A stretch of 64,000 bases of DNA from Tubiluchus corallicola (lineage: Eukaryota > Animalia > Priapulida): assembly GCA_030141605.1 (NCBI GenBank), contig JAQGDQ010000841.1, positions 24,817 through 88,816 on the forward strand, given 5' to 3'. Below, in pieces: positions 3,483 through 64,000 of the stretch; positions within the stretch are counted from its first letter, which is position 1; each line of letters begins with the position of its first letter. The notes beneath the pieces are model-generated. The model ran no database searches. It had not been told where the DNA came from and saw nothing but the letters and a program-made list of their open reading frames with translations. The position numbers were made by a program, and so were the translations under genes.

Positions 3483-4219
3483 CAGTACTGGAACTGAAGG
3501 AAGCTACCGGGGACGCTTGACATTCAGCATCTTGACGCGTTGCTTATCAACTTCTTTTGACCAACTAATGGACATTTACTAAATTTCTCAATTATGATGA
3601 AGATAAATCAATCAGAAACTTAAACACTGTGCACCTCACAGATAAATGTGTGGTCGGGCTGATCTATCAGTGAGGTGCACAGCTTCTTTAGTATCTGATT
3701 GATTTATCTTCATTGTAATTGAGAAATTCAATCCAGTAAATGTCCAGTAGTTGATCGAAAAAAGTTTATAAGCAACGCGTCAAGACACCGAATGTCAAGC
3801 GTCCTCCATAGCTTCCTTCAGTTCCAGTACTGTCACATTTTGCACGTCCACTGCTTATACTCCACATCATACTTTGGTTCAGAAACGAACAACGTTGTTT
3901 TGTGATGCGAAATGTTGACACTTTCCCCTTCTGCATTAGTTATCTTACTGACTGGAACAGTAAACAAAAAACTAAAAAGTCTCTTGAGCACTTTCTTCTA
4001 CAGGAAACACTGATTGAGATGCTACTTGCTTGCCGTGACGATGCAGAAACACAACATCAGAAATTTCTCTGCCGGTCAACATTTTAGTTTTTATGGCTGA
4101 TACTACAACTGATTTATTATCCATTGTCGGAAATCTAATTTGATACAGAATGACAGGTAAGACTTCAATTTTGTTAGCAATGTTGCCTTCTAATTTTCTC
4201 CATTCAGACTCAGCATCAT
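3093..4219. repeat. Inverted repeat, ~550-bp arms (3093-3645 / 3665-4219), ~20-nt loop
   Basis: The reverse complement of 3665-4219 aligns with the BACK-domain part of the pseudogene, with scattered mismatches. Confidence 0.9.
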
Positions 4220-4489
4220 GAACATCAAACCTGCAGGCTTAATTAACGATGGTGAAATTCGTATCAAACTGCATTTTCAACTTCCATAAGCAGATGCAGA
4301 AATTTAATGATCCTGGTGTTGTGCTGTTTATTTGCCTGGGCATTATACATACGTAAACAAACAATGATATAAAAGGAAATACAGACGAAAACATAAAATT
4401 GTCCAACAAAGTCATTAATTTTTATTTATCACAAGAACAACAACAGCAGCAAAATTAATAAATAACCAAACCCTGCAAAAAAATGACAA

Positions 4490-8318: not shown

Positions 8319-8925
8319 AGCAAAACTGGACCCAATCTTAAACTGCAAATCAAAACAATCTACTCTTTAAAATATTGAAATGAAATATACCATTTTTTCA
8401 AAAACGACTTGCGTGAAAGAATTGTTACCACGCAAACACAATTTCGCATTTGCATCACTAGTTCTTCGCTGTTACATGCATTTCACCATTTGTTGGTTAG
8501 ATGGGCACTAGCGCCTGCATTTTGGAAACATTTTGTACAAAAAAACAGGTGCTGTACCTCTCAATTCAGAGGTGTTTGTTTGTGATGTCGTGCATGAACA
8601 TAGCAGTAAATTTGAAATTTGAATTTTTATCTTAAAACTTGCCTTGTTTTACTACAACACACCGAATATCTTCCAATAGCACTGTACTTCAATTTTTGCT
8701 TTTGCAAACATGTGCAGCACTCACGGAATTTTTTTGCTATTAAAAATTATGTTAGTTTGTGATGTCATCAATAGTTGGGCTCGTTCGCTGTTAAATAAGA
8801 TTTTTATCTATCATTTAATTATCAGAAGTGTTTCTGCTGTGTTACTTGTGTTAAAATGTATACATTTTATCAGAATTAAAAATGGGGTAGTATATGAAAA
8901 ATCATCCCGTCTTCCTAGATCTTAA
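8319..8925. mobile_element. Kolobok-like MITE family, copy
   Basis: TTAA|AGCAAAACTGGACCC start; ends AAATCATCCCG..TTAA. Confidence 0.65.
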
Positions 8926-13799: not shown

Positions 13800-15917
13800 A
13801 TGAGCACTGAGAACGGGCTTGCAGACAATCATTTCTCCGGGTCGCACCACCGGGTTGCGTCAGCACCGTCGGCACGGAATGGCAGATCTTCTCCTACGTA
13901 CAGTGCACACAGTTACATGATTCGTACCAGTTTGTGGAAACTCAGTGCGGAAAAACGTGCGAAAAAAGTGCGGTTTTATCGCAACGGAGACAGATACTTT
14001 AAAGGAGTGATTTACGCTGTTTCGTGCGAGAAATTCCGAACGTTTGATTCATTGCTGGCAGATCTGAATCGGACACTGTGCGACAAGGTGAATCTACCGC
14101 ACGGCGTGCGACATATATTCTCTTTACAGGGTCACAAAATCCACTCGCTAGACGAGTTAGAGGACGGCGGGTCGTACGTGTGTGCTTCCGACAATCGGTT
14201 CAAACGGGAGAATTATTCCGTTAGTTCTAACCCGACCTGGCATGCGTCGGTGAAGAATCGGTCAAGTCCTAACTTGCTAGAGCTAAGCTGTGCCCGACCG
14301 CAAGAGGAAGAGTTTGCAGCGCGAGATTTCATCAAACCCAAATTAGTCACAGTCATAAGAAACGGTGTAAAACCGCGGAAAGCCGTTCGAATACTTCTCA
14401 ACAAAAAGACTGCCCACTCATTCGAACAAGTATTAAGCGACATTACCAATGCCATCAAACTGGACACCGGACCGGTCAAGAAGATTTTCAGTTTGGATGG
14501 CCGTCAGATTACCACACTTCGAGGCTTTTTCGAAGACGACGATATTTTTATCGCTTACGGACCGGAAAAGTATTGCCATGATGATTTTGACATCTCTGAA
14601 GACGAACTCAGAGTTTCCAGAACTCCTTCTAGAAGTAAATGTCTTGGAGGAAGTGGAAGAGTTACTCCAAAGTCTCCTCACGGTCTGAGGAAGTCAGCAA
14701 AGGATTCCCCGATCACACCAACTAGCAGTAGTAGCCATGTCAGTGGTGAACTGTCCGATGTCGAGAGACGGTCGGTCGGATGTAAGTCACCTGGCTCCGG
14801 ACGAAAGCAGCGACCAAGAAGTCTGGCCAAACCGCTCGAAAATTGCCGACTGACCGCGGTTGCCAATGGAAACGGAAAGTGCAACCTCCCGCCTTTCATC
14901 TTGGAAAAGTTTTCCGTGGGCAAATTGGTGGGCGACGGCAACTTTGCCGTTGTGCGCCAGTGCGTGGAGATGTCGACGCAGAAGGAGTACGCCCTGAAAA
15001 TCATCGACAAGACGAAGGTCCGGGGAAAAGCCCAGATGATCAACAACGAAGTGAAGATCTTGAGGAAAGTTAAACATCCGAACATTGTGCAACTTATCGA
15101 AGAATACAGCACTCCGGTCGAGCTGTACCTAGTCATGGAGCTGGTGAAGGGAGGAGATCTCTTCGACCACATCGCGTCTTCCACTAAATACACGGAACGA
15201 GACGCCAGCGGGATGGTGTTCAACCTGCTGAGCGCCGTCAACTACCTGCATTCCATGAACATTGTTCATCGGGACATTAAACCCGAGAATCTTCTCGTGT
15301 GTGAACACGAGGACGGGAGCAAGTCGCTGAAACTTGGAGATTTTGGTTTATCGATGGAAGTAACGAAGCCCATATTCACCGTATGCGGCACTCCCACCTA
15401 CGTCGCTCCGGAAATATTAAAGGAAACCGGCTACGGCTTGCCGGTGGATATCTGGGCGGTGGGAGTGATCACCTACATTCTTCTGTGTGGCTTCCCGCCT
15501 TTCGTCAGCATCGCCAACAGCCAAGACGAGCTTTTCGACAAGATCATTGGCGGCGCATTTGAGTTCACGTCGCCCTTCTGGGACGAGATTTCCGATTCTG
15601 CCAAGGAGCTGATTGCCGGCATGCTCCAAGTGGACCCGGAGACCCGCTGGACTGCCGAGCAGTGTCTCTTCCATCCGTGGGTGCACGGCGACACGGCACG
15701 AGATGACGACATGCACATCACCGTCGCCAGGAAACTGACGTTGTACTTTGACATGGCCGGCAAGCATAATCATACGCCGACAACGGCAGGATTAGCGGTT
15801 TTAGCTCACACGGCTCTGGACAAGGACATGGATCAGTGGCACGGTCACCACCGATCTCCGGAAGCTGGAGACGCTTTCCAAGTAAACTGTGACAAGCTTT
15901 TGCAAAACGAAATATGA
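13800..15917 (+). CDS. DCLK1: Doublecortin-like serine/threonine kinase (two DCX domains + CAMK-family kinase), single coding exon
   Basis: 705-aa ORF: AKKVRFYRNGDRYFKG (DCX1), KPKLVTVIRNGVKPRKAVRILLNKKTAHSFEQVL (DCX2), GDGNFAVV, YALKII, HRDIKPEN, LGDFG, CGTPTYVAPE; acceptor TTTTTCAG at 13742 in the 5' UTR. Confidence 0.97.
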   Translation: MSTENGLADNHFSGSHHRVASAPSARNGRSSPTYSAHSYMIRTSLWKLSAEKRAKKVRFYRNGDRYFKGVIYAVSCEKFRTFDSLLADLNRTLCDKVNLPHGVRHIFSLQGHKIHSLDELEDGGSYVCASDNRFKRENYSVSSNPTWHASVKNRSSPNLLELSCARPQEEEFAARDFIKPKLVTVIRNGVKPRKAVRILLNKKTAHSFEQVLSDITNAIKLDTGPVKKIFSLDGRQITTLRGFFEDDDIFIAYGPEKYCHDDFDISEDELRVSRTPSRSKCLGGSGRVTPKSPHGLRKSAKDSPITPTSSSSHVSGELSDVERRSVGCKSPGSGRKQRPRSLAKPLENCRLTAVANGNGKCNLPPFILEKFSVGKLVGDGNFAVVRQCVEMSTQKEYALKIIDKTKVRGKAQMINNEVKILRKVKHPNIVQLIEEYSTPVELYLVMELVKGGDLFDHIASSTKYTERDASGMVFNLLSAVNYLHSMNIVHRDIKPENLLVCEHEDGSKSLKLGDFGLSMEVTKPIFTVCGTPTYVAPEILKETGYGLPVDIWAVGVITYILLCGFPPFVSIANSQDELFDKIIGGAFEFTSPFWDEISDSAKELIAGMLQVDPETRWTAEQCLFHPWVHGDTARDDDMHITVARKLTLYFDMAGKHNHTPTTAGLAVLAHTALDKDMDQWHGHHRSPEAGDAFQVNCDKLLQNEI

Positions 15918-27890: not shown

Positions 27891-28317
27891 GAAATTACTT
27901 TTTAATATGCTATTTACTGAGCAGACATTCATGACGCGTCAAATGAATTTTCTTGCTCACAGGTTTTTGAAATGTTTAGCCAAAATCCCTGGAAGGAAAT
28001 GGGATAGAGGATGGAAATGGAAATGGGATAGAGGACTTGACATAAACCCAGAAAACATTTTTATTTTTGAGATAGTTTTGAAGACATATTTTAAAAGTAA
28101 CCATGTTTTCAGCCAAACATTCAAGGTTCGATTCCTGCCTGCATTTATAATTCTGAAGAAACACATTTTTGTGTCACCGATTCATGGAAAATAAAATAAA
28201 ACAACAAAAAGAAATAGTTTCTAAAAAAAATGTTGGGTTTCCGAACAAACGTTGGGCATTTGCAACTGTGGTATCTTAATTGTATCCTGCCTAGTGCTGC
28301 CATCTTTCAACAGTTAA

Positions 28318-28815
28318 AGCAAAACTGGACCCAATGTTAAATTGTAGGTCAAAATAATTTACTCTTTAAAATATTGAAAGGAAACATGCTATTTTTTCAA
28401 AAATGACTTATGTGAAAGAATCATTACCACACAAACACAATTTCACGTTCGCGCCACTAGTTCTACACTGTTACATGCATTTTGCTATTCGTTATTTAGA
28501 CGGGCACCAGCGCCTGCATTTCGGAAACACATTGCAAAAAACAGTTGCTGTACTTGTCAGTTTAGATGTGTTAGTCTGTGAGGAACTGCACACGTTCGAC
28601 ACCTCATGCGTAAATCTGCAAATTTTGAATATTTATCTTAAAACTTGCCTAGTTTTAGTACAACACAATGAATATTTTCCATAGCACTGTACTTCAATTT
28701 TCTCTTTCGCAAACACATGCAACACACTCATGGAATATTTTTGCTGTTGAAAATTATGTTAGTTTGTGATGTCATCACCAGTTGGGCTCGCCTGCTGTTA
28801 ATTAAGTTTTTAATC
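28318..28815. mobile_element. Kolobok-like MITE family, truncated copy
   Basis: TTAA|AGCAAAACTGGACCC start and shared body. Confidence 0.6.
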
Positions 28816-28824
28816 TATTATTGA

Positions 28825-32288: not shown

Positions 32289-32889
32289 ATGTGCAGGTGA
32301 AACATTACTTTTTTTCCGTATATTTTTATGGCGGGACATTAAAAAGTAACTTATTCGTTACAGAAACGAGTTCAGAGGTGGGGATCACATATACGTACGT
32401 AGAGGCGTGTCGATCGTCCATCATGGTATCTACATCGGTGGAGACGAAGTTATTTATCTAAGTCCTGGCGACCACGAGAACGAAGATGGCGTTTATCGTA
32501 GTTCGCTGCATGAATTTCTTCAAGGCGGAACACCGAAGAAATACGAGTACAATTGTTCCAGAAACGAAGTTGTCATCAAACCCTCGGGTACTTGCTGCAT
32601 CCACGCGAGAGATCTTCCTCCGGCTGTGGTCAGGAGAGCGCTGGATTTTTACAAGAATGGAAATTACATGGAAAAATGTGGCGGGTGGAGCGACACTGAG
32701 AACAATTCGGAGACGTTTGCTTTGGTCTGCACTTTGGGGGATAATATTGTAAAGAAGTACCCCGGGATGACAAAGAGAAGGCAGTTACCCCGACAGGTTG
32801 GAGGGCGCGTGGCTTCTGAAGTAGCCAATCAGACATTGTTTCTCACAGTAAGACGTGCTGTCAATACTGTACTCAATAAGATTTTTTAA
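32289..32889 (+). CDS. LRAT/NlpC-P60 (NC-domain) protein, FAM84/LRATD-like, catalytic Cys replaced by Ser
   Basis: Main exon 32364-32889: GDHIYVRR..HHGIYIGGDEVI..SLHEFLQG..VVRRA..NNSETFALVCTLG; putative start exon ATGTGCAG|GT at 32289-32296 is phase-compatible. Confidence 0.75.
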
Positions 32890-42490: not shown

Positions 42491-42607
42491 AGTTTGGGAA
42501 TTGTTGGAATAAATCTGGTTTAAAATAAGTACAGAAAACGAACGAGTAAAAGCCCGGCATCACAGAGTGAGAAAACAGCTTCCCTCTCCCAGGTCCTTTG
42601 TTAGACT

Positions 42608-43215
42608 GTCGGTCAAAACAATCTGTTCTTTAAAATATTGAAAGGAAACATCCCGTTTTTTAATGAATGACTTACGTGAAAGAATTATAACCACACACAC
42701 AATTTCACGCTCATACCAATTGTTCTTCTACATGCTTCTAGTTCGTGCCACTACATGCATTTCGCCATTTTCTAGTTAGACGGGCACTAGCGCCTACGTT
42801 TTGAAAACGCATTGCGCAAAAGACAGGTGCTGTACTTCTCAGTTCAGATGTGTTAGTTTGTTACGAACTACACACGTTCGACGGCTCATGCGTCAGCACA
42901 CGATAAATTTGAAATTTGAATTTTTATCTTAAAACTTGCCTAGTTTTAGTACAACACACGGAATATCTTACAGTAGCACTAATCTTCAATTTTCGCTTTC
43001 GCAAACACGCGCAACACGCTTATGGAAAATTTTTGCTATTGAAAATTATGTTAGCTTGTGATGTTGTCAATACTTGGGCTCGCCCGCCATTATTTAAGAT
43101 TTTAATCTATTATTTAATTATCAGAAACGCTTTTGCAGTATTAATTGTGTTAAGATGTATACTTTCTAGCGGACTTGAAAATGGGGAAGTATATGAAAAA
43201 TCATCCGTCTTAGTT
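42608..43215. mobile_element. Kolobok-like MITE family, copy lacking its left end
   Basis: Shared body; ends AAAATCATCCGTCTTAGT|TTAA. Confidence 0.6.
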
Positions 43216-43736
43216 TAACAGGATTTTTCTCTTGACTACTTAACCTCAACTCAGGTCGTTGACTCTACGCGGTCTACATCAGTCTTAAAGCAACAGGGAA
43301 CAATAATTGTGTCTTTGTTGTGAAGACAGATGACAGATGGTCACCTTAACTGAGCGAGTGTAATTAAGAGAAAACGCCTCAAGACTAGAGGATTACATAC
43401 TGTACACGAAAGTGCAGTATAACTTCGTTTATTACACCACCAGACAGGTTGTACTTGCAGTTTACTTTGCCGTGAGCAGAATAACACGTTTTATGGCAGT
43501 TCTCTTTTGCGCTGCGTCAGTAACCAATTTTTTGGTGAGTGGTCAGTCGTGGTCTATTGAACACGTGACTAGAGAGCGAAAAGTGAAGTGAACAGGTCAG
43601 TAACTCCTGCAAATTCTTTTGAAAATTAGTTTTGAAAAAACATGACAATTTGTTGGTGATTGTTGTTAGCAAATAGAGTAATAAGTACTTTTAAAATTAA
43701 AGAATGCGGTATTATAAGATTTCAGCTTGACCACAA

Positions 43737-47000: not shown

Positions 47001-50000
47001 CAACTTTGGATTAGATGGTCAAATAGGTGAGTGTCCGAGGGTCATTCCAGCTCTCACACCTAGCCTCTTCTCTCGTGTTTTACCTGCGGTCAACTTTGGA
47101 TTAGATGGTCAAATAGATAAGTGTCCTAGGGTCATTCCAGCTCTCACACCTAGGTCTCTTCTCTCATGTTTTACCAGTGGTCAACTTTGGATTAGATGGA
47201 CAAATAGGTGAGTATCCCAAGGTCATTCCAGCTCTCACACCTAGGTCTCTTCTCTCATGTTTTACCTGTGGTCAACTTTGGATTAGATGGACAAATAGGT
47301 GAGTATCCCAAGGTCATTCCAGCTCTCACACCTAGACTCCTCATGTTTTACCTGTGGTCAACTTTGGATTAGATGGTCAAATAGGTGAGTGTCCTAGGGT
47401 CATTCCAGCTCTCACACCTAGTCTCTTCTCTCATGTTTCACCTGTGATAAACTTTGGATTAGATGGTCAAATAGGTGAGTGTCCTAGGGTCATTCCAGCT
47501 CTCACACCTAGTCTCTTCTCTCATGTTTCACCTGTGGTCAACTTTGGATTAGACGGTCAAATAGGTGAGTGGAGTAATACCTTTGATATTACGGTTTTTT
47601 CATTGTGAAGTTATATAAATTTTACACTTGTAGAAATTTTGTCATGGCCTTAGGTTCCTTTCCAAACTCTGTTAGGACCATAAGACTTTGCTGCAGTTTG
47701 CACACGTTCACGAAACTGCTCACGGCGATTGCACTATATTTGATAATTTTTGTAGGTTTCTACTCCTCACATGATGGATTTTCATGCAAAATTATCTATG
47801 AAATGCATTTGCCTACCTCAGACAAATTGAAAATCAATTTTGACGCTTTCAGTAACTGCAGTGTTTGCACTGTAACAATGTATAGTATCACTTGCGTGAA
47901 ATCGGTTAATGCAGAAAATTTCAACTATCCAGATACAACAGTCTGATTCACTTTGACCTCATGTCTACTATATTTTTAAGGAGAAATTCCTGTTAAAAGA
48001 TGAAACCAACCTAAATTCCTCCTTTCCTGATCGGTTTGTTTTTCCTGGAATAACAGCAGAACACTGCACAGACGATCATTAAATTAGTGTGTACGATCAC
48101 GCAAGTGTGTACCAGACTAGCGGCTACTCATAGATCAAGTTGGAGTGCCTGAAAAGGGCGTGTTCCTCGTAATTTTATCCAATTAAATCGCTTATGAATG
48201 TTTAAACAAATAGCTTGATTGGATAGCCGAGATTCTCCTGCATAGAACAGTACCTAATTTGTAATCAGTTAGTTATGTCTGTGCTCATATAGTAGCAGAA
48301 AAGTCACAGGTTTTGTGATATTTTGAATGGTTTGGTCATGAAGTAGCTAAGTGAAAAACACTATGGCAGTTATCGTAGGTAATAAAATACATAATTGAGA
48401 CCACAGATAAAAATGACAGGTAGTCTTAAAATTCACGTGTGCTAAGCCTTGCTTTGTTTAAGTAAAATAAAATATCTTCATTTATCCTAATCAAATACAG
48501 CAATACGCAAATTCATCATTTGATGTTACCTTCGAATTTAGCCTATCTTTTGTGTTCATTTTGTAGTTGAATATCTGCCAAACTACGTGAAGAAACATCT
48601 AAAATGGAGGTTGAATATGCCTTGGAGGATTATAAAGAGGATGTTTGAACGATCAAACTATCATAGGGCAAGATCTGGTACGAATGCTCAATAATTTTTC
48701 AATTTGCGGTTTTTAATATTTGGCACAACTTAGGCAGGCTTTCAGTATAGCCAGCACAAGGATGTACATTTATGTACAGTTAATTCTACCGTAGAATTTA
48801 TGTAGAATAGCTACATTAATTCTACCGTAGAATTTATGTAGAATAGTTACATTAATTCTACCATAGGATTTATGTAGAATAGCTACATTAATTCTACCGT
48901 AGAATTTATGTAGAATAGCTACATTAATTCTACCATAGGATTTATGTAGAATAGCTACGTTAATTTTACTGTAAAATTTATGTAGAATAGCTACGTTAAT
49001 TCTAATGTAGAATTTATGTATAATAGCTAAGTTAAGTCCAATTTATGCAGAGCAGCAACGTTAATTCAACGTAGAATATATTTATATATACATATGTGTG
49101 TGTAGTGTGTTTATATACGTGTGTCTATATACTACAATGACTACACGTCTAAATATATGAATTAAAAGCCATTATATAGCTATGTTAAAGATTCTGAGTT
49201 TAATGAGTTAAAATGTGAGAACAAATATAACAATAAACAAACTAACGGGCTCACAAACAGGCAGACGGACAAAAAAACGAACGAATACATTTAACACCAC
49301 TATCACGACTCTCATTATGTTTGTGGCTTGCAGTAAAAGCTTGCTCAAAAACACGTAAGCAGGTTCACTAACATAAATATTCATTCAGTCTTAACAACCA
49401 GAATACATGTTATCTGTTAGTAGCTTTATTGTGTACCGACAGGTAAAGAGTGGACAGCTTGTTGGTGTAAAAGAATTTCCATTGAACAGATGGAAGGGTT
49501 AAAAGCATATCAAAAAGTAAGTGATACAACGTTTAAAACGGTTTAAGCGTAAGTTATTAGTTCATAGCCTATTACTACTACCACTTGCTACCTTCATTAC
49601 TGAACTCTTCACTGTAGTAAAGTCACCAGTAAGAATATGCTACCTTCATTATTCTACTCTTCACTGTAGTAAAGTCAGCAGTAAGAATATGCTACCTTCA
49701 TTATTCTACTCTTCACTGTAGTAAAGTCAGCAGTAAGTATATGCTACCTTCATTATTCTACTCTTCACTGTAGTAAAGTCAGCAGTAAGAATATGCTACC
49801 TTCATTATTGTACTCTTCACTGTAGTAAACTCAGCAGTAAGAATATGCTACCTTCATTATTGTACTCTTCACTGTAGTAAAGTCACCAGCAAGAACATGC
49901 TACCTTCATTATTGTACTCGTCACTATAGTAAAGTCATCAGTAAGAATATGTTACCTTCAGTATTGTACTCTTCACTGTAGTAAAGGCACCAGTAAGAAC

Positions 50001-53000
50001 ATGCTACCTTCATTATTGTACTCTTCACTGTAGTAAAGTCACCAGTAAGAATGTCATGCTAACTTCATTATTGTACTCTCCACTGCAGTAAAGTCACCAG
50101 TAAGAACATGCTACCTTCATTACTGTACTCTTCATTGTAGTAAAGTCACCAGTAAGAATATGCTACCTTCAGTATTGTACTCTTCACTGTAGTAAAGGCA
50201 TCAGTAAGAACATGCTACCTTCATTATTGTACTCTTCACTGTAGTAAAGTCACCAGTAAGAACATGCTACCTTCATTATTGTACTCTCCACTGCAGTAAA
50301 GTCACCAGTAAGAATATGCTACCTTCATTATTGTACTCTTCACTGTAGTAAAGTCACCAGCAAGAACATGCTACCTTCATTATTGTGCTCTTCACTATGG
50401 TAAAGTCATCAGTAAGAATATGTTACCTTCAGTATTGTACTCTTCACTGTAGTAAAGGCACCAGTAAGAACATGCTAAATTCAGTATTGTACTCTTCACT
50501 GTAGTAAAGTCACTAGTAAGAATATGCTACCTTCATTATTGTACTCTTCACTGTAGTAAAGTCACCAGTAAGAATATGCTACCTTCAGTATTGTACTCTT
50601 CACTGTAGTAAAGTCACCAGTAAGAACATGCTAACTTCATTATTGTACTCTTCACTGTAGTAAAGTCACCAGTAGGAACATGCTACCTTCATTATTGCAC
50701 TCTTCACTGTAGTAAAGTCACTAGTAAGAATATGCTACCTTCATTATTGCACTCTTCACTGTAGTAAAGTCACCAGTAAGAATATGCTACCTTCAGTATT
50801 GTACTCTTCACAGTAGTAAAGGCATCAGTAAGAATATGCTACCTTCATTATTGTACTCTTCACTGTAGTAAAGTCACCAGTAAGAACATGCTAACTTCAT
50901 TATTGTACTCTTCACTGTAGCAAAGTTACCAATAAGAATATGCTACCTTCATTATTGTACTCGTCACTGTAGTAAAGTCACCAGTAAGAACATGCTACCT
51001 TCATTATTGTACTCGTCACTGTAGTAAAGTCACCAGTAAGAATATGTTACCTTCATTATTGCACTCTTCACTGTAGTAAAGTCACCACTAAAGATATGGT
51101 GATTTTCATTGTTTTACACTTCATTGCAGTACAGTCACTTCCCAGGTTCTGGTACAGAGAATGCGCACAAAGACAGTTTTTGGAGGAGCATACTGCACAT
51201 GCGTAAAAAATTTGGCTCAAAAGAATTTGGTTTCGTGCCAATCAGCTTTCTTCTGCCTGACCAGATGACAGAGTTTCTGAGTTACTATGACAACCATCCT
51301 CAAGGAAAGTGGATACGTAAACCAGTAAGTTCTAGTACACAATGTCTGCGCATTAATTGCTTTTGACTAATATAATACTTTAATTTTAATTTGATTGAAT
51401 ATGAAGCTGTTTCTGAATAAATTCTAAAATAATAATTGGTGCTTTACAGCATCTTGCTTTCAATGCTTAACAAAATGATATTATTGAAAAAAGTTTTGTG
51501 TTTTTTTTTGTCTTGTACTTTTATACTCCACTCGTAGTTTAGCAAGTTTGGTGGGAGAGATGTGGCAGTTTTGAACAACCGCAGTCAGCTACCAAACGAT
51601 CCTGACAAGCCTTTCATTATTCAGAGGTTTGTGTAGTCTATATTGTTCGTCTCTAATCTCTAATGCATTAAAAGATTGGTTGCAAAAGTAAAAGAGCTAT
51701 ACTATTGATATGGTCTACGAATGTTTAGATTGATGCAAACTAGGAGCTCTGCCTACTATAGATAAATTTCCATTTTTTTATTACCTAATTGTTAACTAAA
51801 TCTAACTAATTATTTATTAATGAGTGAGTGACCATTAAGACCTATAATGTACAAAACTAAAAAGATTTTCATTTTTATTTTTTTGCTGCAACTTGTCGAA
51901 AAGTTTGTGTTTTCATTTCAGTGCCATTTTCTGGTACTGAGCTTGCAGGGAAGTCTTTTGTACAAGACGGCGCTGTTCTTTCTTATCCACATCCAAAACG
52001 AGTTTAAGATCTCAACAAAACATGAACACATCCATATTACTAACTGAAATAAATAATTTTTGTGCTTCTAGGTATATCAGTAAGCCACTGCTTATTGAAG
52101 GTTATAAGTTTCACGTTAGATTACACGTTTACGTCTCATCAATACAACCAATGAGGATTTACATTCATGAAAATGGACTTGTACGATTCGCCAGCAACAA
52201 GTAAGAACGTTTTTCTTCAATTCAAAACTCACTTGTGAATAAAACATCACGAGCACTTTTTTCTACAGTTTCAATGTGATTTTGTAACAATGTCCACTCT
52301 TTTACGAACGAAAGCTTTCTTTTAAAGGAATACAGGATGATTTTTTATGCACTACACCATTTTCAAATCCGATAAACACTATACATTTTTACTGCAAAAG
52401 CGTTTCTGATAACTAAATAACAGATTAAAAACATATTTAATGGAGGGCAAGTCTAACTAATGATGACATCACGAACTAACATAATTTTAAGCGGCAAAAA
52501 TATTCCATGAGCGTGTTCCTCGTGTATGCAAAAGGGAAAATTGAATACAGTGCTAAGATATTCAGTGTGTTATGTTAAAATTAGGTAAGTTTTAAGATAA
52601 AAATTCAAATTACAAATTTGCTGCTGTGCTCATACATGAGCGTTGAAACTAACACGTCTGAACTGAGAAGTACAGCACCTGTTTTTTGTGCAATGCATTT
52701 CTGAAATGCAGGCGCTAGTGCCCATCTAACTAGCGAATGCCAAAATGCAAATAACAGGGAAGAACTAGTGGCGTGAACCGGAAATTGTGTTTCTGTGGTA
52801 ACGATTCGTTTACGTAAGTCATTTTTGAAAAAATAGTACGTTTCCTTTCAGTATTTTAAAGAGTACATTTGTTTTGATCAGTTTAAGATTGGATCCGGTT
52901 TTGCTTTAATAGTAAATGACATAATTGCTTTTACTGTTAGAAGCAAAGTCTATTAAATAGAAAAGAGATTCTTGGCACAAAAATAGCATATTTTACGCCT

Positions 53001-56000
53001 AATATTTAAAGAATGTCACTTTTTTAAGAACTTAATCAAAGCAGATTGTAGCATCACATTCAAACGGAAGAAAAAACCTTGACACCGATCACTGCTATTA
53101 GCTTGTTTACCATTCTTCCCTACTATTATCACGTACCTCTTTAAAGAGAAGTGTTAAGACAATTTTCGTCTGATGTAACAATGACTTTTCATACTGAAAT
53201 GTGCACTTGCCAAGTGTTTTTAAATGCGAAAAAGACTTTTGGATGTGAATTAAGTTTTGGTACCGCAGTTGCATGGATTTTGTTGGCACGGTACGCACCA
53301 GTTCTGCAAGTTCATGTGGTAGAGAAATTGCCACATCATACATGGATCATATTGATGCATTGGAAGTCAAAAACTTGTTGAGTCTTGTGATTGTTTTTAT
53401 TTCATGGATCATATTGATGCATTGGAAATCAAAAACGTGTTGAGTCTTGTGATTGTTTTTATTTCGTGGGTCATATTGATGCATTGGAAATCAAAAACGT
53501 GTTGAGTCTTGTGATTGTTTTTATTTCATGGGTCATATTGATGCATTGGAAATCAAAAACGTGTTGAGTCTTGTGATTGTTTTTATTTCATGGATCATAT
53601 TGATGCATTGGAAATCAAAAACGTGTTGAGTCTTGTGATTGTTTTTATTTCATGGATGATATGGATGCATTGGAAATCAAAAACGTGTTGAGTCTTGTGA
53701 TTGTTTTTATTTCATGGATCATATTGATGCATTGGAAATCAAAAACGTGTTGAGTCTTGTGATTGTTTTTATTTCGTGGGTCATATTGATGCATTGGAAA
53801 TCAAAAACGTGTTGAGTCTTGTGATTGTTTTTATTTCATGGATCATATTGATGCAATGAAAATAAAAAACGTGTTGAGTCTTGTGATTGTTTTTATTTCA
53901 TGGATCATATTGATGCATTGGAAATCAAAAACGTGTTGAGTCTTGTGATTGTTTTATTTCATGGATCATATTGATGCATTGGAAATCAAAAACGTGTTGA
54001 GTCTTGTAATCGTTTTTATTTCAGATACTCCAACAAGGATTCTGATGCATCCAACAGCTTCATGCATCTCACTAACTGGGATTTGAATAAAAAAAATAGA
54101 CATTCAAGGCAGAATATTACCTTCAGTCCAACGTATAATTACATGTGGTAAGTGGTAGGTCTCTTTCACTCTGATGGTAACAGATCATGCAGTGAGACCA
54201 CAGCTGCCAAGGCCGTCTTAGACCTTCTCCTCATGTGTTAGTACAGTCAACCTCGGGTATAAGGTACTCGCTTATAAGGGACCACCAACACTAATGGTCC
54301 CGATTTTTCGTAACATTTTTCCTATGTAAAAATCTTTTTATATAAGGTACTCGGATATAAGGGACTTACGGTTATAAGGGACAATATCTTAAGGTCCCGC
54401 GTAATAGAAACCCAGGTAAATTACCTCGCATATAGAGGTCCCTATGATCAAAGCGAAATTGATTTTTAACCTCAATTTTTGCAAACACATCTCGCATCAC
54501 TGAAGGAGCTTCCTACATACCGTTTGCACTGAATGTGTAGCAATAATCCATAAAAATATGGGTGAAAGTGCAAAGAAAGTACAGGTCTAGATACACCCTC
54601 TGTCTGTCTCAGCTTCGGCTATAAGCGATTTTTTCCGGTCCTGAGGTGTCCCTTATATCCGAGTGTTGGGAGCTAGTAGATTTTTATGGTGGGGGTGCAA
54701 CTCTTTACCTCCCAACTCATCCACAAATCTGACTACCCTGTTGCGTCATCTTTTATTCACAATAAAAGGGTTGTGCAACATACGTGGGCGGTTGTTGTCA
54801 TACAATTTTCCAGAGGGCAAGAAGGCATATGAACCAAAATTCAACGACACAGGTATAATTAATATATCTTTAGTGAAGTTGCAATGTCGAAGGGCTCACT
54901 TGAAAAACCAGCGGGTCTAAGGCTTGATGTTACGTTTTACGGGGGTCTACTTAGGCGTTATGGTTTTCCATGTTGACCATGACATACATAGATTCCAAAC
55001 ATTCCAGCAACAAAATCTTATATGAAATGGAGGAAAAGATTATGATTATGTTTACTATTTTTATTCACTTTTTACTCTGTTTAGATAAATTAGAACAGGT
55101 TATAATATCAATAACAGTTTCGCGTAAAGGCAGTTAATAATAACAAAAATGACAAAGTGAAAAGAATACAAAATGTCTACTTATCAGTTAACCCTTCCCC
55201 TGAGAGGACAAGGACATGGGAGAGGAGTCCGCGGACGTAGCTCACTCCAGTCAGTCACAGCAACACATCAACGACTTCAAGTCTATGGCCATAACAATCA
55301 ACGGTGATGGCGCCGGCTGCAGCACCAATCAAACATGAACTAAGGAATGGCTCACAAGTCTCTGTGGTTGACTCAGGATACGTCCACAATCCACAACGTC
55401 TGGACACTGGTGGCTAGTCACGCCTCTCCGTGTAGTTTAGAATAAGACACATCGTAGAAAGTTCCAACATCTCATCAGTGTGAATAAAGCTCCATCCACA
55501 ACATCAAAACTGAAGTAGTTTGGTATCACCACTGATAGTCTCTTTATGTTAGATCAGTCAAATAGTAGATGTGCACAAGTTTAGTGCTTCAGACTCGTTA
55601 CACTGTACTCTCCTGGCTATCTGTGTCATGCACTTTCCAAGATCATGTTATGCATGGATAGTTTATAGTATATTATCAAAGGAGGGGTGATAGGTAGGAA
55701 GCCCTTCCCACAGACTATACTACAGCAATATCTAGTTTAGCTATGTGTAAGAACCTTACACCGAGGTTGACCGTATGCATGTTTCATTTATCTAATAATA
55801 CTCTGTTTTGGTAGACTAGTTACATTATTTATTATTTTCAGGACATTAAGAACTTTTTGGAAATACTTGGACCATAAAGGATCGGAAAATAGGAATGAAC
55901 TATGGCAAAAGATGCAAGATATGATTATAAAGCAGTTGATAAGGTAGGAAAAGATGAGAAAATTATGCAAAAGAAAGTTCGAGATGAGATTGCAATTTAA

Positions 56001-56168
56001 TTTTAAATTACGTTTTCTGCATTTTGTTTACAGCGTGGAATGGGTGATGAATCACATGATGAACGCGCATGTCAAAAACCGTTATTCTTGTCATGAGATC
56101 TACGGTTACGACTTCATGTTTGACGAGAATCTCACCCCTTGGATGCTAGAAAATAATGCTGAACCCAG
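44008..56168 (+). CDS. TTLL4: TTLL4-like tubulin-tyrosine-ligase-family (ATP-grasp) protein with putative N-terminal signal peptide; 3'-truncated here
   Basis: Exons 44008-44065, 46850-47026, 48567-48677, 49443-49516, 51130-51324, 51538-51626, 52072-52200, 54025-54147, 55842-55943, 56034-56168, all GT-AG and phase-compatible. Motifs: PALTPSLFSHVLPVVNFG, SHFPGS..KDSFWR..KFGSKEFGFVP, KWIRKP, IIQRYISKPLLIEGYKFHVR, GLVRFAS, FMHLTN, RYSCHEIYGYDFMFDENLTPWMLENN. The first exon is the least certain. Confidence 0.85.
44100..44260 (-). mobile_element. Short RTE-type retroposon, diverged copy 4
   Basis: TTGTAGACATTGGGCAGG..GCTTGTCAGCACCA shared with the other copies. Confidence 0.6.
44920..46320. repeat. 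~88-bp tandem repeat, ~16 copies (TTLL intron)
   Basis: TTTTTGGTCACTAGAAGGACTGTCTTAACAGC recurring. Confidence 0.95.
46939..47570. repeat. 90-bp tandem repeat, 7 copies, spanning exon 3' end and donor
   Basis: GAGTGTCCGAGGGTCATTCCAGC...CAAATAG|GT; the first copy is coding. Confidence 0.95.
48780..49075. repeat. 36-bp tandem repeat, ~8 copies
   Basis: TTAATTCTACCGTAGAATTTATGTAGAATAGCTACA. Confidence 0.85.
49587..51090. repeat. 52-bp tandem repeat, ~29 copies, filling a TTLL intron
   Basis: GCTACCTTCATTATTGTACTCTTCACTGTAGTAAAGTCACCAGTAAGAATAT. Confidence 0.95.
52326..52905. mobile_element. Kolobok-like MITE, full length (inverted relative to the other copies)
   Basis: TTAA|AGGAATACAGGAT ... 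ATCCGGTTTTGCT|TTAA. Confidence 0.75.
53341..54022. repeat. 62-bp tandem repeat, 11 copies, ending at a splice acceptor
   Basis: CATGGATCATATTGATGCATTGGAAATCAAAAACGTGTTGAGTCTTGTGATTGTTTTTATTT. Confidence 0.95.
54244..54668. mobile_element. pogo/Tigger-like MITE (mirrored at about 61008-61429)
   Basis: TA|CAGTCAACCTCGGGTATAAGG ... CCTTATATCCGAGTGTTG; internal TATAAGGGAC subrepeats. Confidence 0.6.
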
Positions 56169-56189
56169 GTAAGAATAAGACAATTGGTA

Positions 56190-56685
56190 AGATGTGTGGT
56201 GAACGCACACCATGGCTGGGCAGTGAATGCCAAGTGACCGCAGTGAGATGTGTGGTGAAAGCACACCATGGCTGGGCAGTGAATGCCAAGTGACCACAGT
56301 GAGATGTGTGGCGAAACCAGGCCATGGCTGGTCAATGAATGCCAGGTGACCACAGTGAGATGCGTGGCGAAAGCACGCCATGGCTGGGCAGTGAATGCCA
56401 AGTGACCACAGTGAGATGTGTGGTGAAAGCACGCCATGGCTGGGCAGTGAATGCCATGTGGCCACAGTGAGATTGTAGTGAAACCACGCCATGGCCAGGC
56501 AGTGAATGCCAGGTGACCACAGTGAGATGTGTGGCAAAAGCACGCCATGGCTGGGCAGTGAATGCCAGGTGACCACAGTGAGATGTGTGGTGAAAGCACG
56601 CCATAGCTGGGCAGTGAATGCCAGGTGACCACAGAGAGATGTGTGGTGAAACCATGCCATGGCTGGGCAGTGAATGCCAGGTGAC
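56190..56685. repeat. 56-bp tandem repeat, ~9 copies (mirrored at 58991-59486)
   Basis: GATGTGTGGTGAAAGCACGCCATGGCTGGGCAGTGAATGCCAGGTGACCACAGTGA. Confidence 0.95.
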
Positions 56686-58990
56686 AGTAGGGTAGATGTT
56701 ACACCTCTGGCCGATTTCCCCCCCTCCTTTGGCTGCCCCTAAAAAAGTGCGAAAATCCGGAAACACCCCTAAAAAAGTGAAGTGGCTCTATTGTCGTGCT
56801 AGTTAAGTGACCAATTTAAGGATTAGGAGTGACGGTTGGTCGACGGGCCACGCCCCCCTCGGCTGCCGGGGGTGGGAACAAAAATCACCCCCTAAAAAAG
56901 TGAAGTGGGTCTATTGTTGCGCTAGTTAAGTGCTCGATTTAAGGATTAGGAGTGACGGTTGGAACTCCCGCACGCTTTGGGGGGGTGCACCCGGCGAGAA
57001 CACCCCCCCTCCGCGGTAAATGCAGTCGTCCGTTCGACACGAGCTCGCTGCGCACTTTGCTCCACCCTAATTGTGGCTAATCCGGTAATCGACTCTCGCC
57101 GCCTAGCTAGCTAGATAATGGGGTAATTGACTTGCGCGCGTGCGTGGCTACGCTAAAAGATTTCTCTACCCACGTGCAGCAGTGCACAGTCTCGTCATCG
57201 TCGTTAAATGGTTAGGATGTTCTTTTATGCGAGTCTAAATTGCCATGCAATTTTTAAAAATTTTACCCCACCCTCATCCGGGCTAGAATGTTCTTTTATG
57301 CGCGTCTAAGTTGCGATACAATTTTATCCTACCTTTATCCGAGATGGATGGATGGATGGATGGATGTCGTCGCCAAAAAGCCTCCTTCGCTCCATCCAAT
57401 GCGGTCGCATCGTGCAACATACAGTCTACTCACACGCGCACACACCGCCGAGCACGATTGTTAGCACGGGCCGACCATTAGCACGAACGTTACCACGTGT
57501 AACATACAGTCTACTCACGCGTCACCGAGCATGATTAATTTCTGGGTTTCTTTATTTTTTTGTCAACTGTAACCAACGATGATGATGATGATGATGATGA
57601 TGACGACGATGATGACGCGGTATTACCTAAAGCAGAGTCTGATCTTTGGTCGTCATCCACTTTTTTATCCGACAGAACAATAATAACTAATGTTAGTTAA
57701 AATTATCTTTTCATTTTGTAAAATCTTTCTATCTGTACTAACTCGCATGTTTAAACCCGCAACGAATGCACTCATCTGATCAGACGCCAAGGCAGGCACG
57801 TGTCTATTTTGAAAAAATCTTTCTATCTGTACTAACTCGCATGTTTAAACCCGCAACGAATGCACTCATCTGATCAGACGCCAAGGCAGGCACGTGTCTA
57901 TTGCTTAATCCGGTAATTGACTCGACTACCTAGCTAATGAGGGCTTAATCCGTTAATTGACTTGCTAGACATGACACCCGCGGCTATTTAAGTGCGTGTA
58001 CCTGTTTTTTAAAAGCCCGTTGGAATGTACAGCAAGCAGACAGTAGGACAGCTGCCGTCTAGGCAATTGAATGCCTGCAGCCTTCTAGTCTGCACGAATT
58101 TCAACGAGTCAGTATTTTTTAGGTGAGGATATATATATATAATCCCAAAAACTCACACAAGTTGGTTACAGTTGACAAAAAAATAAAGAAACCCAGAAAT
58201 TAATCATGCTCGGTGACGCGTGAGTAGACTGTATGTTACACGTGGTAACGTTCGTGCTAATGGTCGGCCCGTGCTAACAATCGTGCTCGGCGGTGTGTGC
58301 GCGTGTGAGTAGACTGTATGTTGCACGATGCGACCGCATTGGATGGAGCGAAGGAGGCTTTTTGGCGACGACATCCATCCATCCATCCATCCATCTCGGA
58401 TAAAGGTAGGATAAAATTGTATCGCAACTTAGACGCGCATAAAAGAACATTCTAGCCCGGATGAGGGTGGGGTAAAATTTTTAAAAATTGCATGGCAATT
58501 TAGACTCGCATAAAAGAACATCCTAACCATTTAACGACGACGACGAGACTGTGCACTGCTGCACGTGGCTAGAGAAATCTTTTAGCCCATTATCTAGCTA
58601 GCGGCCAGCTAGGCGGCGAGAGTCGATTACCGGATTAGCCACAATTAGGGTGGAGCAAGCAAAGTGCGCAGCGAGCGCGTGTCGAACGGACGACTGCATT
58701 TACCGCGGAGGGGGGGGGGTGTTCTCGCCGGGCGCACCCCCCCAAAGCGTGCGGGAGTTCCAACCGTCACTCCTAATCCTTAAATCGAGCACTTAACTAG
58801 CGCAACAATAGACCCACTTCACTTTTTTAGGGGGTGATTTTTGTTCCCACCCCCGGCAGCCGAGGGGGGCGTGGCCCGTCGACCAACCGTCACTCCTAAT
58901 CCTTAAATTGGTCACTTAACTAGCACGACAATAGAGCCACTTCACTTTTTTAGGGGTGTTTCCGGATTTTCGCACTTTTTTAGGGGCAGC
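56686..58990. mobile_element. Non-coding long-TIR element (~850-890-bp TIRs, 583-bp core), Maverick/Polinton-like or foldback
   Basis: GC-rich insert beginning AGTAGGGTAG; arms 56732-57577 / 58161-58990; internal direct repeats; no ORF. Confidence 0.55.
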
Positions 58991-59507
58991 GTCACCTGGC
59001 ATTCACTGCCCAGCCATGGCATGGTTTCACCACACATCTCTCTGTGGTCACCTGGCATTCACTGCCCAGCTATGGCGTGCTTTCACCACACATCTCACTG
59101 TGGTCACCTGGCATTCACTGCCCAGCCATGGCGTGCTTTTGCCACACATCTCACTGTGGTCACCTGGCATTCACTGCCTGGCCATGGCGTGGTTTCACTA
59201 CAATCTCACTGTGGCCACATGGCATTCACTGCCCAGCCATGGCGTGCTTTCACCACACATCTCACTGTGGTCACTTGGCATTCACTGCCCAGCCATGGCG
59301 TGCTTTCGCCACGCATCTCACTGTGGTCACCTGGCATTCATTGACCAGCCATGGCCTGGTTTCGCCACACATCTCACTGTGGTCACTTGGCATTCACTGC
59401 CCAGCCATGGTGTGCTTTCACCACACATCTCACTGCGGTCACTTGGCATTCACTGCCCAGCCATGGTGTGCGTTCACCACACATCTTACCAATTGTCTTA
59501 TTCTTAC

Positions 59508-62500
59508 CTGGGTTCAGCATTATTTTCTAGCATCCAAGGGGTGAGATTCTCGTCAAACATGAAGTCGTAACCGTAGATCTCATGACAAGAATAACGGTTT
59601 TTGACATGCGCGTTCATCATGTGATTCATCACCCATTCCACGCTGTAAACAAAATGCAGAAAACGTAATTTAAAATTAAATTGCAATCTCATCTCGAACT
59701 TTCTTTTGCATAATTTTCTCATCTTTTCCTACCTTATCAACTGCTTTATAATCATATCTTGCATCTTTTGCCATAGTTCATTCCTATTTTCCGATCCTTT
59801 ATGGTCCAAGTATTTCCAAAAAGTTCTTAATGTCCTGAAAATAATAAATAATGTAACTAGTCTACCAAAACAGAGTATTATTAGATAAATGAAACATGCA
59901 TACGGTCAACCTCGGTGTAAGGTTCTTACACATAGCTAAACTAGATATTGCTGTAGTATAGTCTGTGGGAAGGGCTTCCTACCTATCACCCCTCCTTTGA
60001 TAATATACTATAAACTATCCATGCATAACATGATCTTGGAAAGTGCATGACACAGATAGCCAGGAGAGTACAGTGTAACGAGTCTGAAGCACTAAACTTG
60101 TGCACATCTACTATTTGACTGATCTAACATAAAGAGACTATCAGTGGTGATACCAAACTACTTCAGTTTTGATGTTGTGGATGGAGCTTTATTCACACTG
60201 ATGAGATGTTGGAACTTTCTACGATGTGTCTTATTCTAAACTACACGGAGAGGCGTGACTAGCCACCAGTGTCCAGACGTTGTGGATTGTGGACATATCC
60301 TGAGTCAACCACAGAGACTTGTGAGCCATTCCTTAGTTCATGTTTGATTGGTGCTGCAGCCGGCGCCATCACCGTTGATTGTTATGGCCATAGACTTGAA
60401 GTCGTTGATGTGTTGCTGTGACTGACTGGAGTGAGCTACGTCCGCGGACTCCTCTCCCATGTCCTTGTCCTCTCAGGGGAAGGGTTAACTGATAAGTAGA
60501 CATTTTGTATTCTTTTCACTTTGTCATTTTTGTTATTATTAACTGCCTTTACGCGAAACTGTTATTGATATTATAACCTGTTCTAATTTATCTAAACAGA
60601 GTAAAAAGTGAATAAAAATAGTAAACATAATCATAATCTTTTCCTCCATTTCATATAAGATTTTGTTGCTGGAATGTTTGGAATCTATGTATGTCATGGT
60701 CAACATGGAAAACCATAACGCCTAAGTAGACCCCCGTAAAACGTAACATCAAGCCTTAGACCCGCTGGTTTTTCAAGTGAGCCCTTCGACATTGCAACTT
60801 CACTAAAGACATATTAATTATACCTGTGTCGTTGAATTTTGGTTCATATGCCTTCTTGCCCTCTGGAAAATTGTATGACAACAACCGCCCACGTATGTTG
60901 CACAACCCTTTTATTGTGAATAAAAGATGACGCAACAGGGTAGTCAGATTTGTGGATGAGTTGGGAGGTAAAGAGTTGCACCCCCACCATAAAAATCTAC
61001 TAGCTCCCAACACTCGGATATAAGGGACACCTCAGGACCGGAAAAAATCGCTTATAGCCGAAGCTGAGACAGACAGAGGGTGTATCTAGACCTGTACTTT
61101 CTTTGCACTTTCACCCATATTTTTATGGATTATTGCTACACATTCAGTGCAAACGGTATGTAGGAAGCTCCTTCAGTGATGCGAGATGTGTTTGCAAAAA
61201 TTGAGGTTAAAAATCAATTTCGCTTTGATCATAGGGACCTCTATATGCGAGGTAATTTACCTGGGTTTCTATTACGCGGGACCTTAAGATATCGTCTTTT
61301 ATAACCGAAAGTCCCTCATATCCGAGCACCTTATATACGAAGATTTTTACATAGGAAAAACTTTACAAAAAATCGCGACCGGTATTGGTGGTCCCTTATA
61401 AGCGAGTACCTTATACCCGAGGTTGACTGTACTAACACATGAGGAGAAGGTCTAAGACGGCCTTGGCAGCTGTGGTCTCACTGCATGATCTGTTACCATC
61501 AGAGTGAAAGAGACCTACCACTTACCACATGTAATTATACGTTGGACTGAAGGTAATATTCTGCCTTGAATGTCTATTTTTTTTATTCAAATCCCAGTTA
61601 GTGAGATGCATGAAGCTGTTGGATGCATCAGAATCCTTGTTGGAGTATCTGAAATAAAAACGATTACAAGACTCAACACGTTTTTGATTTCCAATGCATC
61701 AATATGATCCATGAAATAAAACAATCACAAGACTCAACACGTTTTTGATTTCCAATGCATCAATATGATCCATGAAATAAAAACAATCACAAGACTCAAC
61801 ACGTTTTTTATTTTCATTGCATCAATATGATCCATGAAATAAAAACAATCACAAGACTCAACACGTTTTTGATTTCCAATGCATCAATATGACCCACGAA
61901 ATAAAAACAATCACAAGACTCAACACGTTTTTGATTTCCAATGCATCAATATGATCCATGAAATAAAAACAATCACAAGACTCAACACGTTTTTGATTTC
62001 CAATGCATCCATATCATCCATGAAATAAAAACAATCACAAGACTCAACACGTTTTTGATTTCCAATGCATCAATATGATCCATGAAATAAAAACAATCAC
62101 AAGACTCAACACGTTTTTGATTTCCAATGCATCAATATGACCCATGAAATAAAAACAATCACAAGACTCAACACGTTTTTGATTTCCAATGCATCAATAT
62201 GACCCACGAAATAAAAACAATCACAAGACTCAACACGTTTTTGATTTCCAATGCATCAATATGATCCATGAAATAAAAACAATCACAAGACTCAACACGT
62301 TTTTGACTTCCAATGCATCAATATGATCCATGTATGATGTGGCAATTTCTCTACCACATGAACTTGCAGAACTGGTGCGTACCGTGCCAACAAAATCCAT
62401 GCAACTGCGGTACCAAAACTTAATTCACATCCAAAAGTCTTTTTCGCATTTAAAAACACTTGGCAAGTGCACATTTCAGTATGAAAAGTCATTGTTACAT

Positions 62501-63601
62501 CAGACGAAAATTGTCTTAACACTTCTCTTTAAAGAGGTACGTGATAATAGTAGGGAAGAATGGTAAACAAGCTAATAGCAGTGATCGGTGTCAAGGTTTT
62601 TTCTTCCGTTTGAATGTGATGCTACAATCTGCTTTGATTAAGTTCTTAAAAAAGTGACATTCTTTAAATATTAGGCGTAAAATATGCTATTTTTGTGCCA
62701 AGAATCTCTTTTCTATTTAATAGACTTTGCTTCTAACAGTAAAAGCAATTATGTCATTTACTATTAAAGCAAAACCGGATCCAATCTTAAACTGATCAAA
62801 ACAAATGTACTCTTTAAAATACTGAAAGGAAACGTACTATTTTTTCAAAAATGACTTACGTAAACGAATCGTTACCACAGAAACACAATTTCCGGTTCAC
62901 GCCACTAGTTCTTCCCTGTTATTTGCATTTTGGCATTCGCTAGTTAGATGGGCACTAGCGCCTGCATTTCAGAAATGCATTGCACAAAAAACAGGTGCTG
63001 TACTTCTCAGTTCAGACGTGTTAGTTTCAACGCTCATGTATGAGCACAGCAGCAAATTTGTAATTTGAATTTTTATCTTAAAACTTACCTAATTTTAACA
63101 TAACACACTGAATATCTTAGCACTGTATTCAATTTTCCCTTTTGCATACACGAGGAACACGCTCATGGAATATTTTTGCCGCTTAAAATTATGTTAGTTC
63201 GTGATGTCATCATTAGTTAGACTTGCCCTCCATTAAATATGTTTTTAATCTGTTATTTAGTTATCAGAAACGCTTTTGCAGTAAAAATGTATAGTGTTTA
63301 TCGGATTTGAAAATGGTGTAGTGCATAAAAAATCATCCTGTATTCCTTTAAAAGAAAGCTTTCGTTCGTAAAAGAGTGGACATTGTTACAAAATCACATT
63401 GAAACTGTAGAAAAAAGTGCTCGTGATGTTTTATTCACAAGTGAGTTTTGAATTGAAGAAAAACGTTCTTACTTGTTGCTGGCGAATCGTACAAGTCCAT
63501 TTTCATGAATGTAAATCCTCATTGGTTGTATTGATGAGACGTAAACGTGTAATCTAACGTGAAACTTATAACCTTCAATAAGCAGTGGCTTACTGATATA
63601 C
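59508..63601 (-). pseudogene. TTLL4: Inverted duplicate of TTLL4-like exons (3'-truncated copy)
   Basis: Mirror exons 63473-63601, 61526-61648, 59733-59834 and 59508-59642 match the plus-strand exons. Confidence 0.85.
62768..63347. mobile_element. Kolobok-like MITE, mirror copy in the palindrome
   Basis: TTAA|AGCAAAACCGGAT ... ATCCTGTATTCCT|TTAA. Confidence 0.75.
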
Positions 63602-64000
63602 CTAGAAGCACAAAAATTATTTATTTCAGTTAGTAATATGGATGTGTTCATGTTTTGTTGAGATCTTAAACTCGTTTTGGATGTGGATAAGAAAGAACAG
63701 CGCCGTCTTGTACAAAAGACTTCCCTGCAAGCTCAGTACCAGAAAATGGCACTGAAATGAAAACACAAACTTTTCGACAAGTTGCAGCAAAAAAATAAAA
63801 ATGAAAATCTTTTTAGTTTTGTACATTATAGGTCTTAATGGTCACTCACTCATTAATAAATAATTAGTTAGATTTAGTTAACAATTAGGTAATAAAAAAA
63901 TGGAAATTTATCTATAGTAGGCAGAGCTCCTAGTTTGCATCAATCTAAACATTCGTAGACCATATCAATAGTATAGCTCTTTTACTTTTGCAACCAATCT

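Follow-up and report, generated by a model that had tools for sequence, protein, structure and literature searches.

A palindrome with a truncated TTLL4-like gene, joined inside a mobile element of the priapulid Tubiluchus corallicola, is a probable fold-back inverted duplication

A TTLL4-like tubulin glutamylase gene of the priapulid Tubiluchus corallicola is cut short by a palindrome that has one end of a multi-copy mobile element at its centre. The palindrome occupies the end of a 64,000-nt stretch of genome (assembly GCA_030141605.1, contig JAQGDQ010000841.1, positions 24,817 to 88,816 of the forward strand; all coordinates below count from the first letter of this stretch, which we call the window) and has a total length of 12,328 bp by self-BLAST. 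The original prediction, made from the letters of the window, had described everything from 58161 to the window end as the mirror of 57577-51673, and this description is borne out by self-BLAST and by base-level alignment. The inverted match 58161-64000/57577-51673 is a single self-BLAST hit of 5919 columns with 98.07% identity, and its outer limit at 51673 simply mirrors the end of the window at 64000 and is no biological edge. Base-level alignment divides each arm into an outer and an inner part. The outer arms (51673-56685, + strand, and 64000-58991, - strand; 5013 nt) are composed of introns and exons of the host gene, a 62-nt and a 56-nt minisatellite and two dispersed repeats. The limit of the left outer arm is set by the window end, and the right outer arm, which holds the last four TTLL exons, leaves the window. 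The inner arms are composed of element sequence and measure 846 nt on the left (56732-57577) and 830 nt on the right (58161-58990, - strand), the latter being an inverted copy of 57577-56732. Between them lies an unduplicated spacer of 583 nt (57578-58160), also element sequence, that represents the predicted loop of the fold-back and is bordered on the left by a (GAT)n run, with an (AT)n run close to its right edge. The same host sequence flanks the element in inverted orientation on both sides, with neither colinear flanks nor a direct target-site duplication.

Both copies of the TTLL gene end after the exon encoding the E-x-N motif and lack the end of the catalytic domain. The left copy (48567-56168, + strand, 5' end unmapped) consists of eight exons with AG/GT ends at 48567-48677, 49443-49516, 51130-51324, 51538-51626, 52072-52200, 54025-54147, 55842-55943 and 56034-56168, which together form a stop-free model of 318 codons. 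A version with the acceptor of the third exon at 51146 contained six stops and was dropped; with the acceptor at 51130 there are none. The right copy contains exact duplicates of the last four of these exons (63601-63473, 61648-61526, 59834-59733 and 59642-59508, - strand). The truncation after the E-x-N exon had been proposed for both copies and is confirmed by the exon model and the exactly mirrored exons, as is the proposed read-through stop, a TAA at 56170-56172 (+ strand) mirrored at 59506-59504 (- strand). A Pfam TTL match spans model positions 11-259 of 292. The closest homologues found in a HMMER search, the best of which are unnamed, are 34-41% identical over 267-331 amino acids, and a word-based search of proteins that used a single TTLL exon as query returned no match. 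Six top homologues were looked up; two belong to clusters named TTLL4, in one case an unrelated name is attached to another member, and three are nameless. Our use of TTLL4-like follows the two named clusters of these six and is a provisional label.

In 27 of the 30 homologues that possess an E-x-N-x-S-P motif (out of 52 long ones), the motif is followed by a conserved tail of about 30 residues. Missing 3' exons were searched for within the 64-kb window, and the tail exon that would complete the TTL domain is absent from both of its strands; tblastn of 30 homologue tails against the window gave scattered short matches alone (best E 0.019). The window likewise contains no close TTLL paralogue. 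The product of this segment would at best be a protein without about 30 residues of the TTL domain, and an intact copy of the gene may be located further on or on the homologue. The encoded protein also differs from TTLL6 at two motifs, reading KFHVR (52073-52201) and ENNAEP (56034-56168) where TTLL6 has KFDLR and EVN-SP, respectively. Judged by these residues, it is a divergent paralogue whose activity may differ.

The centre of the palindrome is formed by one end of a multi-copy mobile element (56686-58160, + strand, about 1475 nt) inserted into a TTLL intron where the 56-nt minisatellite ends. This piece is GC- and CpG-rich and begins with the letters AGTAGG. Alignment of contigs from four public DNA runs (two samples) to 56600-58160 (1561 nt) yielded 1128, 850, 74 and 903 records; runs X5 and X6, which share almost no words with the region, were left out. 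The runs may derive from other animals, as indicated by one contig of run X1 that is unlike both arms at 56646. Summed contig depth, which served solely to place the element start roughly and is not a copy number, steps up near 56686 and remains high through the spacer, with dozens of variant sites along the way. Because depth is high across both the inner arm and the spacer, the two represent one continuous piece of a multi-copy element. A start at 56700-56702 (TA plus CAC) was rejected on the grounds that the depth step requires about 20 covered bases in the bin 56653-56705.

The contigs of this family depart from the window at 58150-58157 and continue as loose ends into other sequence in all four runs. 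The return into the inverted arm is therefore not part of the family structure, the inner arms are not terminal inverted repeats (TIRs) of the family, and the join is a new one that falls within the element. The original prediction had taken the inner arms, 830-890 nt in length, for long TIRs, an interpretation that is not supported; they are one element end that has been duplicated. Two letters found in both inner arms, at 57283 and 57524, differ from every aligned contig of the four runs, which argues that a single insertion was duplicated. Some family contigs diverge from the window at 56779 (three of four runs among the rows listed), and this suggests that the end truly shared by members of the family comprises about 94 nt (56686-56779) and is a candidate terminal repeat.

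None of the three element open reading frames tested matched Pfam, Rfam gave no match over 51000-59100, and the window holds no second element end, target-site duplication, transposase gene or remainder of the element. Seven metagenome matches to an 18-mer of the element end were dropped, as four aligned to the window over 18-21 nt alone, one gave an unrelated weak 33-nt match and two did not align; a pattern scan of viral contigs for the element end gave no match. Maverick/Polinton elements are reported to carry the terminal motif 5'-(AGT)2 or (AG)3 and GC-rich subterminal repeats (PMC8097293). The element start, AGTAGG, placed from the depth step, agrees with five of the six letters of (AGT)2, and the present element likewise has GC-rich subterminal repeats. 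However, the motif is inexact, core genes of the group (polymerase, integrase, capsid) are missing among the three frames tested, and the far end and the 6-bp target-site duplication are absent from the window, so that kinship with this group is put forward as a lead only. Literature searches, which were not aimed at the organism, found no report on this locus or element family.

The two arms differ by 27 events, 24 of which fall within dispersed repeats, either in one of two patches or at the end of the element. Outside the first patch, base-level alignment of the outer arms shows isolated substitutions at 53375, 54866 and 55381, corresponding to 3 differences in 4918 nt or 0.06% (95% range 0.013-0.18%). 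Three point changes had been claimed for these arms, and those at 53375 and 55381 are found as described while the one placed near 54865 is located at 54866. Patch 1 (54289-54383) contains 14 substitutions and one 3-nt indel (15 events) and lies in the outer arms within a repeat of about 54241-54670 that resembles a miniature inverted-repeat transposable element (MITE), a label given by eye from its terminal inverted motifs. This is the divergent patch noted earlier. The alignment reveals a second, patch 2 (56989-57197), with 4 substitutions and indels of 3, 4, 7 and 30 nt (8 events) in the inner arms, as well as the loss of 46 nt at one element end: the outer element end (56686-56731, + strand) is present in the left arm only. 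In the right arm the flank base joins the equivalent of 56732 directly, and the loss thus begins exactly at the flank/element boundary, that is, at the insertion site.

The differences are strongly clustered in repeats. Both patches sit inside multi-copy repeats, the clustering of each has P < 1e-8 at the background rate, and the inner arms carry 9 events in 892 nt compared with the 3 in 4918 nt of the outer arms outside patch 1. The first arm difference lies 380 nt past the join, the inner arms being identical for 380 and 257 nt on the two sides of patch 2, and both minisatellites have equal unit numbers in the two arms. Two right-arm forms of patch 2 are also found in family contigs. A 4-nt right-arm insertion at 57056 represents a minority form in three of four runs, and one loose end of run X1 matches the 30-nt-shorter form of the right arm. 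The sequence of patch 2 seems to have come from a different copy of the repeat, and the minority status of the 4-nt insertion fits conversion from such a copy better than majority-vote polishing. In addition, the arm differences include several linked indels and the 46-nt loss that abuts the insertion site, and these are not read errors.

We consider it probable, short of confident, that the palindrome is a real fold-back inverted duplication following a break inside the mobile element. The join (58161-58164, + strand) consists of the four letters GTTG, an inverted microhomology common to the onward sequence of the family and the reverse complement of 57574-57577; just before it the window has 2 nt extra compared with the family contigs. 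When 200,000 inverted joins were placed at random in this element, 1.7% had a microhomology of at least 4 nt. In human inverted duplications with terminal deletion, the reported signature of fold-back is a spacer combined with 2-8 nt of inverted microhomology, based on 21 junctions with spacers of 766-70,466 nt (Hermetz et al., 2014; PMC3907307). The spacer and 4-nt microhomology found here correspond to this signature and favor fold-back repair. As in the human cases, a forward copy is followed by an unduplicated spacer and an inverted copy, the microhomology is located at the spacer edge, and distal sequence is missing beside the join, judged here within the window to 64000. In contrast to the human cases, which according to the same account are mostly new events, the arms of the present palindrome have already diverged.

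In the proposed sequence of events, a chromosome would have broken inside the element near 58164, in the intron of the TTLL4-like gene. After resection, the 3' GTTG would have paired with CAAC 583 nt back, resulting in intrastrand priming and in backward copying of first the element end and then the TTLL gene. A second join beyond the window would later have stabilised the chromosome. Thereafter the arms would have acquired the three point changes, the two patches would have been converted by other copies of the repeats, and one element end would have lost 46 nt. Fold-back inverted duplication is a known and expected kind of event, and the palindrome is most likely a functionless scar. The original prediction had offered a fold-back rearrangement or an assembly artefact, which are indeed the two options to be weighed, with fold-back gaining from the 4-nt microhomology. 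Its suggestion of a haplotype join through the TIRs has little footing, given that the inner arms are not TIRs.

Several points weigh against a real fold-back. The outer end and the second join lie beyond the window, and instability is expected of long, nearly perfect palindromes whose spacer is short. The 0.06% divergence of the arms, across its range of 0.013-0.18%, would fit a pair of alleles equally well. At 583 nt, the spacer is slightly shorter than in any of the 21 human cases (766-70,466 nt; PMC3907307), and multiple displacement amplification (MDA) yields this type of join more often than any other product, as described in PMC1855051.

An artefact is accordingly the foremost alternative, which we regard as unlikely on balance yet deserving of serious weight. 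Here, a fold-back chimera from library amplification or sequencing would have made the 58160/58161 join, and the assembler would have extended it with the second haplotype; the arm differences would be allelic and the real locus would be a single TTLL gene whose intron holds the complete element. Among MDA chimeras, 85% of 475 were reported to be inverted with a deletion, with priming on 2-21 nt (Lasken and Stockwell, 2007; PMC1855051), and the present inversion with intervening deletion, the distance of less than 10 kb and the few bases of microhomology all match this pattern. Palindromic reads are also common in amplified single-worm libraries, where they make up 8.8-30.9% of reads (PMC10450198). 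The low divergence together with the equal minisatellite unit numbers is compatible with two alleles, and the loss of the gene 3' end would be explained without any biology. Pacasus (10.1101/173872) reportedly deals with palindromic long reads as well. However, MDA chimeras are mostly intramolecular by the account in PMC1855051 and their arms should match along the read, whereas the arms here differ from 380 nt past the join. With 27 events between them they are not copies of one molecule, although assembly of a second haplotype could mask this. A haplotype switch so close to the join would need an overlap wholly within a multi-copy repeat. The window, moreover, looks like an accurate long-read assembly, with 2.5-kb minisatellites resolved by unit and an unbroken 704-codon open reading frame. 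Contigs of the four runs are uninformative either way: 92 records aligned at 58118-58205, none of the 29 listed bridges 58157-58161 and position 58160 is uncovered, with contigs dropping rare variants and the runs possibly being from other animals.

An element-driven or complex event is highly improbable, whether it was alternative transposition accompanied by re-replication or two template switches that left an inverted triplication. In that case the right arm would be followed by a complete TTLL copy and the remainder of the element. The exact coincidence of the 46-nt loss with the element/flank boundary is what an abortive end cut might leave, and sister-chromatid transposition in maize offers a precedent in which fused inverted copies of one Ac end arise together with inverted host duplications (10.1101/2020.01.07.897926). 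In the maize products described there, however, an excision footprint occupies the middle of the duplicated host DNA and the fused ends are located at a new target, while in the present locus the fused ends are themselves the centre; a second element end, target-site duplication and transposase gene are also missing from the window. Least probable of all is a single 2.3-kb element with the inner arms as its TIRs, mirrored by haplotype-crossing assembly or TIR-TIR exchange: the excess of inner-arm differences is as expected of old TIRs, but the family contigs run on past 58157 in four of four runs, those diverging at 56779 suggest that only about 94 nt of the end are shared, and the inner arms have copy-specific letters in common as well as long identical stretches around patch 2.

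If the fold-back is real, transcription across it could in principle yield hairpin RNA, and the original prediction had proposed small interfering RNAs (siRNAs) directed against the TTLL gene family. This proposal is weak. siRNAs need near-identical targets, so that an intact allele or the element family could be hit and not the distant paralogues found, given that the nearest TTLL proteins are 34-41% identical and a close paralogue is missing from the window. The polyadenylation-type signals near the join add to this. On the + strand, AATAAA and ATTAAA are both absent from 56170 to the join, and AATAAA is found 21 nt beyond the join on either strand, at 58182 (+) and 57556 (-), the next being at 59675 (+) and 56001 (-). 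Read-through could yield a hairpin transcript, although cleavage might end it 21-45 nt beyond the join, and any promoter of the right TTLL copy would be located outside the window. Of the potential targets of a hairpin RNA, the element family would be more plausible than TTLL paralogues.

The furthest-reaching form of this idea is a natural 'killer' locus, in which a real and inherited fold-back is read through from the TTLL4-like promoter, endogenous siRNAs silence a possibly Maverick-derived family and the intact TTLL allele in trans, and conversion between repeats near the centre stabilises the palindrome. We regard such a locus as highly improbable. Its hairpin would possess an 830-nt element stem and a gene stem of more than 5 kb. 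In anatomy only, the arrangement resembles Mu killer and Ac killer of maize, where two inverted copies of one DNA-element end, fused at an internal position, sit downstream of a host gene and within its intron, and read-through would give a hairpin (PMC3440606; 10.1101/2020.01.07.897926; PMC13635294). In contrast to the present locus, where one stretch of host DNA forms the two flanks in opposite orientation, Mu killer lies between different genes (amy4 and acm1), and the Ac alleles are reported to arise by alternative transposition (10.1101/2020.01.07.897926). RNA evidence exists for both maize loci while the present one is known from DNA sequence alone; no transposase sequence was detected in its duplicated part and no active autonomous element is known. 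Even for Mu killer, the read-through model is disputed in the account of PMC3440606.

If true, fold-back repair here would represent a clean germ-line example inside a mobile element of a little-studied animal. Its arms would record the trimming of an element end as well as two patches of conversion confined to repeats, and the gene 3' end would have been removed on this segment. Such a case would be useful to curators and to work on palindrome stability. If the palindrome is an artefact, it is a mis-assembly that yields two false truncated TTLL models. Wider interest is limited to the killer locus, should that prove true.

The remainder of the window contains further genes and repeats. An intronless doublecortin-like kinase (DCLK) open reading frame of 704 codons is located at 13800-15914 (+ strand), with a GC content of 51% and a CpG observed/expected ratio of 1.15 compared with 0.68 for 1-51672. 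Its product shows 54-58% identity to DCLK proteins of hemichordates, chelicerates, lancelets, annelids and vertebrates, with no group standing out. As introns are usually numerous in DCLK genes, this copy may be a retrocopy or have lost them. A stop-to-stop frame of 179 codons at 32350-32889 (+ strand) encodes an LRAT domain (PF04970, E 1.9e-9), and by eye the stretch at about 2000-2770 holds a broken BTB/POZ-like fragment followed by a remnant resembling a long interspersed nuclear element. An older palindrome at 3085-4226 has arms of about 560 nt, with 478 of 558 aligned letters alike, and a loop of about 14 nt; it may be a decayed fold-back or an element with long TIRs. Minisatellite arrays are unusually numerous in 12592-51138, with units of 26-154 nt and lengths of up to 2.5 kb, and several of them lie in TTLL introns. 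A dispersed repeat of about 600 nt occurs at 663-1226, 8306-8916, 28314-28822, 42605-43221 and 52319-52918 (mirror 62755-63354), its copies being 73-81% alike, and the copy at 52319-52918 is identical in both arms of the palindrome.

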